Origin: a virus | Lineage: Duplodnaviria; Heunggongvirae; Uroviricota; Caudoviricetes | Virus record (IMG/VR): IMGVR_UViG_2526164634_000034 | Coordinates: 1-38,867 of that record | Direction: 5' to 3' (one strand) | DNA: 38,867 nt | Shown: positions 1,979 to 2,360 of the stretch, in pieces | Layout of the letters: each line of letters opens with the position of its first letter | How positions within the stretch are numbered: position 1 is the stretch's first letter | Translations under genes and position numbers: made by a program | Notes under the pieces: model-generated | What the model saw: only the letters and a program-made list of their open reading frames with translations | What the model was told of the DNA's origin: nothing | Databases searched by the model: none

Positions 1979-2099
1979 TTCATTGCTCCAGACGAATGAT
2001 ATGATGCAACCATGATGTGATTGCATACCGAAATGGTACTATTGAGTATTTATCCAGTAGGTTACGATGCCATTCCACCCAACTGGTGAGGCATCAAGG

Positions 2100-2360
2100 A
2101 TGTACAGCAAATACGACGAGGCGCAGTTTCACTTGAGACTTCCGCATGAACTCCACGCGAAAATTAAGCAGCGTGCGAAGATGAATAACAGGTCGCTGAA
2201 TTCAGAGATAATTGCAGCGATTGAAGAATCATTGGCTAAACAAAGCTCTGCATCTGTTTACATTGACGATGCAGAGCGTATGGCAGAACAACAATCTGAT
2301 ATGGTTAAGAAAATTGTCTTTGATACGCTCAAGGAGCTATATAAAAAAGACAGCAGCTAA
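2100..2360 (+). CDS. mnt: Mnt-like ribbon-helix-helix repressor (immI remnant)
   Basis: C-terminus ...AERMAEQQSDMVKKIVFDTLKELYKK resembles recalled P22 Mnt; the N-terminus has an RHH motif (LRLPHELHAKIKQRAKMNNRSLNSEI). ATG at 2100 with GGTGAGG 8 nt upstream. Confidence 0.7.
   Translation: MYSKYDEAQFHLRLPHELHAKIKQRAKMNNRSLNSEIIAAIEESLAKQSSASVYIDDAERMAEQQSDMVKKIVFDTLKELYKKDSS

Follow-up and report, generated by a model that had tools for sequence, protein, structure and literature searches.

The P22-like (Lederbergvirus) prophage analyzed here, which has a virion module of the Sf6/HK620 type, carries between its homologue of gene 16 and its tailspike gene what we regard, with a probability of roughly 65%, as a minimal 'mnt-only' ant moron, that is, a self-contained, prophage-expressed cassette made up of an operator, a promoter, the repressor gene mnt and an open reading frame (ORF) for a 25-aa membrane peptide. 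The cassette is functional and probably self-regulating: a Mnt tetramer would bind a palindrome beside the -35 element of its own promoter and thereby regulate its own transcription, recombination at a 'boundary sequence' that is repeated ahead of the tailspike gene would have removed the arc-ant segment, and transcription of the tailspike gene would come not from a Mnt-controlled promoter but from late-operon read-through out of gene 16, antisense through mnt. The mnt-only layout has been known since 2008 and is common; the window, by which we mean the whole stretch of 38,867 nucleotides analyzed (IMG/VR virus record IMGVR_UViG_2526164634_000034), is one more case of it, with a distinct operator class. 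The features of the locus are collected in Table 1.

Table 1 Features of the mnt locus and its flanks, in window coordinates
Feature	Position	Strand	Basis	Remarks
Tailspike gene	41-1978	minus	ORF list and translation	645 aa; P22-type head-binding N-terminal domain, beta-helix receptor domain
Tailspike Shine-Dalgarno GGAG	1986-1989	minus	read from sequence	7 nt before the ATG at 1978
Intergenic spacer, tailspike/mnt	1979-2099			121 bp; the two genes are divergent
Imperfect inverted repeat ATGCAACCA / TGATTGCAT	2004-2026		repeat search	9 bp, 89% complementarity; best in the spacer
Candidate Mnt operator ATACCGAAATGGTAC	2025-2039		alignment and conservation	15-bp palindrome; abuts the -35 of the mnt promoter
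Putative mnt promoter	2042-2068	plus		-35 TTGAGT 2042-2047, 15-nt spacer, -10 TACGAT 2063-2068
Decayed homologue of P22 Pant	2047-2073	minus		-35-like ATGGCA 2073-2068, 15-nt spacer, -10-like TAAATA 2052-2047
CACC-CAACT-GGTG palindrome	2076-2088	plus	pattern match	in the mnt leader; overlaps Shine-Dalgarno GAGG 2088-2091
mnt	2100-2360	plus	Pfam, homology	86-aa ribbon-helix-helix repressor with Mnt-type C-terminal tetramerization domain
25-aa hydrophobic ORF (MQRDMMNIAFYIFGFCTFLVFEKLF)	2381-2458	plus		strong Shine-Dalgarno GGAGGA; 9-nt overlap with the 3' end of gene 16
Gene 16 homologue (P22 DNA ejection protein)	2450-4447	minus	ORF	converges on mnt

The first-pass annotation described an orphan mnt gene directly divergent from the tailspike gene, with arc, ant and sieA absent, and both parts of this description hold; its coordinates are likewise right, except that the spacer, given there as 120 bp, measures 121 bp. 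The tailspike protein matches the Pfam families Head_binding (1.1e-66) and Beta_helix (6e-10), and the context upstream of its start codon (tctggagcaa...ATG) is identical to that of P22 gene 9. On the other side, the late genes end, ahead of the mnt cassette, with the gene 16 homologue, which matching records label P22-gp16 family or DNA transfer protein. Between the two (1979-2449) there are only mnt and the 25-aa ORF, the content expected of an 'mnt-only' ant moron. Searches of the whole window with tblastn returned no meaningful match to Arc, Ant or SieA of P22, to Ant of Kapi1 and CUS-3, or to KilA and Rha of phage JEP4, and Kapi1 Arc had no match in the window, leaving mnt as the sole immI gene. 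The spacer is too small to hold arc, the arc-ant junction that encodes the sar antisense RNA is absent, and the only report of an Rfam search of the window at the gathering threshold is an RNA-OUT located elsewhere, with no antisense RNA in the mnt region. In P22, the immI region occupies the same position between genes 16 and 9, with mnt likewise running antisense to the late operon and with a palindromic operator abutting the -35 of a homologous mnt promoter; the P22 region, however, also includes arc, ant, sar and sieA, all four of which are missing from the window, where the hexamers corresponding to Pant have decayed and the overlap of Pant with the Mnt operator is thus not preserved.

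The 25-aa ORF has no Pfam match and is probably co-transcribed with mnt. Its frame is open in all 97 related loci (in one of them, the first codon is not ATG), and some relatives have a gene for a 161-aa putative lipoprotein in its place. At the opposite end of the tailspike gene, directly after its stop codon, a fully paired 10-bp stem (CTGCGATACC/GGTATCGCAG) and then TTTT can be read on the minus strand (5-39), which looks like a terminator closing the late operon.

The product of mnt is a true Mnt homologue, as had been surmised from its sequence at first reading, with both domains that define the family, a ribbon-helix-helix and a C-terminal coiled-coil tetramerization domain. It shares 49% identity with P22 Mnt over 80 aa (E 1e-30), and 1MNT is its top match among solved structures (3.4e-19). 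The N-terminal ribbon-helix-helix domain matches Pfam Arc (PF03869, 7.5e-15, residues 7-49) and aligns with 1MNT and with Arc structures, and the C-terminal domain matches Pfam Repressor_Mnt (PF11423, 3.4e-14, residues 57-82) as well as 1QEY, the structure of the Mnt C-terminal domain (1.7e-8). Purifying selection acts on mnt, with a dN/dS of 0.145 over its full length (57 distinct full-length alleles, of which one has an internal stop) and 0.038 for the DNA-binding domain (67 alleles). In phages VSe13 (locus L003, 4079-4333) and JEP4 (L005, 2998-3255), Mnt is domain-swapped, with an N-terminal ribbon-helix-helix about 87-89% identical to that of the window, a C-terminal oligomerization domain unrelated to it, and the same control block upstream. 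The upstream block thus travels with the ribbon-helix-helix domain despite the C-terminal swap, and it does so in Buttiauxella as well.

This control block contains the candidate operator and promoter. We aligned 77 distinct sequences, including relatives that are only 72-89% identical in the DNA-binding domain, and found the blocks TACC (2026-2029), AAA (2031-2033), GGTA (2035-2038), TTG (2042-2044) and TTACGATGC (2062-2070) to be invariant, conservation of the operator arms TACC/GGTA, the central AAA, the -35 TTG and the -10 TACGAT being 99-100%. The variable columns are the two operator spacer positions flanking AAA, the 3' half of the -35 and the positions equivalent to Pant. In diverged relatives, including Buttiauxella, the operator takes the form GTACC-N5-GGTAC. 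The pattern TACC-N5-GGTA lies 73-76 nt (mostly 74 or 76) upstream of the mnt ATG in 155 loci, and only 10 other copies occur in 1.0 Mb. The columns of the candidate operator also hold the annotated Mnt operator of P22 and, for phage L and Gally, palindromes that are perfect; the orphan cassettes of phage L, ST160 and Gally all have perfect palindromes that line up positionally with that of the window. More specifically, ATACCGAAATGGTAC and the TA-TTGAGT after it align with GGTCCACCGTGGACC and TA-TTGAGA in P22, and the alignment of P22, phage L, Gally and Brookers displays one order throughout, namely a palindrome, TA-TTG (the -35), 15-17 nt, and a TAnnAT -10. The putative mnt promoter accordingly coincides with annotated P22 Pmnt (TTGAGA-17-TATCAT) and with its counterparts in phage L and Gally. 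By sequence position, then, the cassette has a candidate for the palindromic operator beside its own -35 that characterizes the Mnt family, and we infer a Mnt operator at 2025-2039 and a mnt promoter in TTGAGT-15-TACGAT. The spacer between -35 and -10 is 15 nt in the window and 17 nt in sister variants; a 15-nt spacer usually makes a weak promoter, and a consensus promoter scan did not call TTGAGT-15-TACGAT. An alternative for mnt may be an extended -10, TGgTACTAT (2034-2042), which overlaps the palindrome. By analogy with P22, the candidate operator would be bound by a tetramer, and the transcription start and autoregulation would follow the P22 pattern.

Palindrome and recognition strand change together from one Mnt class to the next; the strand reads ..HFNFR.. 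in the P22 class (operator CCAC-N-GTGG), ..QFNLR.. in the L/Gally class (AGACCAC-N-GTGGTCT) and ..QFHLR.. in the class of the window (TACC-N5-GGTA). Gln and His in the window protein replace His6 and Asn8 of P22 Mnt, where the operator is CCAC-N1-GTGG, and these substitutions in the DNA-binding strand point to a separate class of operator specificity. 'mnt-only' ant morons with only mnt and one small gene have been described in the Salmonella phages ST64T and ST104 and in a Paratyphi prophage (Villafane 2008, PMC2629481), and Salmonella phage L is of the same type (Zaworski 2020, PMC8022706); beyond these two genome papers, we found no functional work on an orphan Mnt in the literature. ST64T, ST104 and L, along with ST160, Gally and Brookers, differ from the window in both respects, having the recognition strand RDDPQFNLRLP and the operator AAGACCAC-N-GTGGTCTT.

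Within the window, 2025-2039 is the only perfect copy of the operator; a second Mnt target was not found, as there is no other perfect site and sites with two mismatches are near the chance level. The own control region thus appears as the sole recognizable target of the window Mnt. A match to CACCATGAAGGTG at 28909 was considered as a second target and rejected, since it falls within a lambda-like PL leader. The segment around it (28900-29550), set in an otherwise P22-like genome, comprises what look like a lambda-type PL leader, nutL boxA/boxB (GCCCTGAAGAAGGGC) and a gene resembling lambda N (MDAQTRRRERRAEKQAQW...). The immC operators of the prophage (27670-27730 and 28800-28880) have the form TTTACC-N4-GGTAAA, with the same arms as the candidate Mnt operator and a spacing one base off; the likeness is probably coincidental, because the Mnt operator travels with mnt.

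The remaining repeats of the region fared less well. The spacer alignment drew on the window and on IMG/VR loci with a Mnt at least 95% identical, with 81 copies of the sequence upstream of mnt in all (44 distinct). The tailspike-proximal half of the spacer occurs in three unrelated versions, types A, B and C, all with the same Mnt, the window being of type A, whereas the mnt-proximal 79 bp (2021-2099) are common to all of them. Type B corresponds to a repeat that P22 has upstream of gene 9; the CUS-3 record labels this repeat as boundary sequence and shows such sequences on the flanks of ant. The imperfect inverted repeat at 2004-2026 straddles the mosaic junction and is found in type A only, being absent from the type B and C spacers with the same Mnt; it is thus not tied to Mnt, and it was discarded as an operator. 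As an RNA hairpin its fold is unremarkable (z -0.45). The first-pass annotation had singled out the CACC..GGTG palindrome, which is indeed present with a 5-nt spacing; it is, however, at the chance level and the wrong choice of operator, 2025-2039 being the better candidate. Inverted repeats with 4-bp arms and spacers of 0-10 nt number 4 in the spacer as compared to 5.3 +/- 2.8 in shuffled sequences, and relatives have N4 or N5 spacing, other arms or no such repeat; moreover, the palindrome sits downstream of the mnt -10, beside the ribosome-binding site. Nor is it convincing as a hairpin of the mnt leader RNA, given a single-sequence fold with z +0.43 and its lack from the RNAalifold consensus of 30 leaders. 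Another inverted repeat of 6 bp, GATGCC ... GGCATC (2066-2071 and 2090-2095), brackets the mnt leader and is conserved in the three Mnt classes (window, phage L, Gally), the few changes keeping G-U pairs on the plus strand. Covariation is insufficient to support a structure, and this outer pair was also rejected as an RNA hairpin, as the RNAalifold energy is only -2.7 kcal/mol with almost no covariation.

The cassette is present in 277 of the 5426 complete E. coli genomes (~5%) and in phages Sf101 and IME10, where nucleotide identity is 98%, Mnt is 98-99% identical and the junction with the tailspike is the same; judged by sequence, there is essentially no difference between the cassettes of these phages, those of the E. 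coli prophages and that of the window. In the Sf101 record, mnt is labelled 'partition protein ATPase' or 'chromosome segregation ATPase' and the region of the 25-aa ORF is missing; in IME10, mnt is present without annotation. Orphan mnt genes divergent from the tailspike gene are also found in Gally, ST160, VSe13, JEP4 and Proteus phage Brookers. A first scan of viral contigs with the operator pattern was too loose (69 chance matches among 120 rows), and a stricter pattern was then used, which in species-representative genomes gave only three matches, in E. coli, Escherichia sp. and Buttiauxella. For the counts that follow, 122 loci were defined solely by the operator-promoter pattern and about 160 loci by protein. 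In 107 of the 122 pattern-defined loci, no more than 120 bp separate the operator from the tailspike start, and 10 more have an insert of 600-650 bp between operator and tailspike, which in those examined contains an HNH homing endonuclease. Homing endonuclease genes of the HNH (plus AP2) kind lie between the tailspike gene and the mnt spacer in L014 (2330-2869), L043 (2366-2869), L088 (2361-2855) and about 10 others, and these inserts leave a duplicate of the tailspike ribosome-binding site and first codons (MSDIT) beside the spacer.

How the tailspike gene is transcribed bears directly on two of the alternatives to a self-contained cassette. The first-pass annotation had suggested that a Mnt-controlled promoter may feed into the tailspike gene, and had proposed aligning the spacer (1979-2099) with Pant and the Mnt operator of P22. 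In that alignment the operator and Pmnt columns match, whereas the Pant hexamers are degenerate: P22 TTGACA-17-TATATT corresponds to ATGGCA-15-TAAATA in the window and to ATGGCA-17-CAAATC in type B sister variants, so that the hexamers are wrongly spaced or the crucial final T of the -10 is absent, and the -10 positions vary among relatives. A consensus scan of 1700-2700 called no minus-strand promoter, and no terminator was predicted between gene 16 and the tailspike gene. With neither a tailspike-directed promoter nor such a terminator predicted, the tailspike is most simply expressed by read-through of the late operon. A Mnt-repressible Pant-like promoter transcribing the tailspike gene directly would fit the P22-like geometry, in which the candidate operator sits at the expected Pant start, 47 bp upstream of the tailspike ATG, and weak matches do persist at the Pant-equivalent hexamers. 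We nevertheless find it quite improbable, given that the minus-strand scan calls nothing, that the Pant homologue, its -10 devoid of the final T, is not conserved while the -35 TTG and -10 TACGAT pointing toward mnt do not vary, that the tailspike-proximal half of the spacer consists of three unrelated mosaics with the same Mnt, and that late read-through suffices; the suggestion is thus unsupported, even if a weak promoter toward the tailspike could conceivably be present. Slightly less improbable, but still unlikely, is that operator, mnt promoter and mnt together serve as a regulatory element dedicated to the tailspike gene, with Mnt bound 47 bp upstream acting as a roadblock and the antisense-firing mnt promoter setting, dampening or insulating read-through from the late operon or the moron. 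Such a role is favored by the position of the cassette, which directly precedes the tailspike start in 107 of the 122 loci and in 10 others is separated from it only by the homing-endonuclease-sized insert, whatever else the moron holds, and by the antisense orientation of mnt relative to the late transcript. If true, it would explain why purifying selection keeps a cassette of private specificity (GTACC-N5-GGTAC), for which no ant-bearing partner was found, at or near the tailspike start of essentially every locus. Against it, Sf6 and HK620 lack any mnt, and an ancestral order mnt-arc-ant-9, followed by deletion at boundary sequences, is the simplest account of the constant adjacency of mnt and tailspike.

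The other question is whether mnt serves immunity or, as a leftover, nothing at all. The first-pass annotation considered that it may be a remnant kept to confer immunity against ant-bearing relatives. An immunity role remains a minor possibility, the least improbable of the alternatives, but the term 'remnant' is misleading because mnt is under clear purifying selection. By keeping Mnt, a prophage could shut off the ant promoter when relatives with the same operator superinfect, and thus spare the lysogen antirepressor-mediated induction, which would agree with the established role of Mnt in P22 lysogens, with the selection on the gene and with the existence of ant-bearing phages in the L/Gally operator class, where ant lies between operator and tailspike in 6 of 91 loci. 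The window class provides no such partners, and the comparison with related prophages retaining arc-ant that had been envisaged therefore found no counterpart: intact arc-ant accompanies the operator in none of the 122 pattern-defined and none of the about 160 protein-defined loci, there being a single truncated ant, and the difference in ant-bearing loci between the window class (0/122) and the L/Gally class (6/91) is significant (Fisher p = 0.006). In JEP4 (L005, 3270-5930) and about 45 similar IMG/VR loci, a module resembling a second immunity region lies between gene 16 and mnt, with a LexA-like repressor (HTH plus S24 peptidase) divergent from a small ribbon-helix-helix gene, which is followed by Rha, KilA and one more gene, all of them converging on the orphan mnt. 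The antirepressor-like genes Rha and KilA are thus under the LexA-like repressor, and in related loci no copy of the operator was found close to Rha/KilA or ant. With no ant-bearing partner, no operator at Rha/KilA and no second site in the window, trans-immunity is left without a visible target for this class. The truncated ant is found in L143 (same contig as L418), where only the C-terminal 110 aa of Ant are left (414-743, 93% identical to P22 Ant), joined via boundary sequence to the mnt control block; it reads as a deletion scar that ties the mnt class of the window to a former ant gene. The least probable is that mnt is a decaying immI leftover with no present role. The loss of arc, ant and Pant, the suboptimal spacer between -35 and -10 and the defective state of the window prophage, with an IS10 in its portal gene, are what such decay would look like, yet the dN/dS values, the single internal stop among 57 alleles, the invariant operator and promoter, and the occurrence of the cassette in 277 E. 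coli genomes and in the viable phages Sf101, IME10, VSe13 and JEP4 all contradict it.

The insertion itself, of IS10 type, splits the portal gene at 12966-14294 (flanks 12957-12965 and 14295-14303) and is recognized by the Rfam RNA-OUT at 14180-14249 (97 bits) and a 402-aa DDE transposase ORF (12979-14187). It is flanked by a 9-bp direct repeat, TACTTGGCA, with copies 1338 bp apart, and the two ORFs on either side match positions 400-594 and 2-404 of the P22_portal profile; a portal gene split in this way should leave the prophage unable to make virions.

The value of the cassette lies mainly in annotation, since the gene is mislabelled in Sf101 and unannotated in IME10 in spite of its presence in about 5% of complete E. 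coli genomes. In addition, GTACC-N5-GGTAC is a concrete candidate operator for a second or third Mnt specificity class, which could interest studies of the ribbon-helix-helix recognition code and builders of orthogonal repressor parts. Why an orphan Mnt should persist under selection without the antirepressor is a question already raised for phage L, and it is slightly sharpened by the present case.
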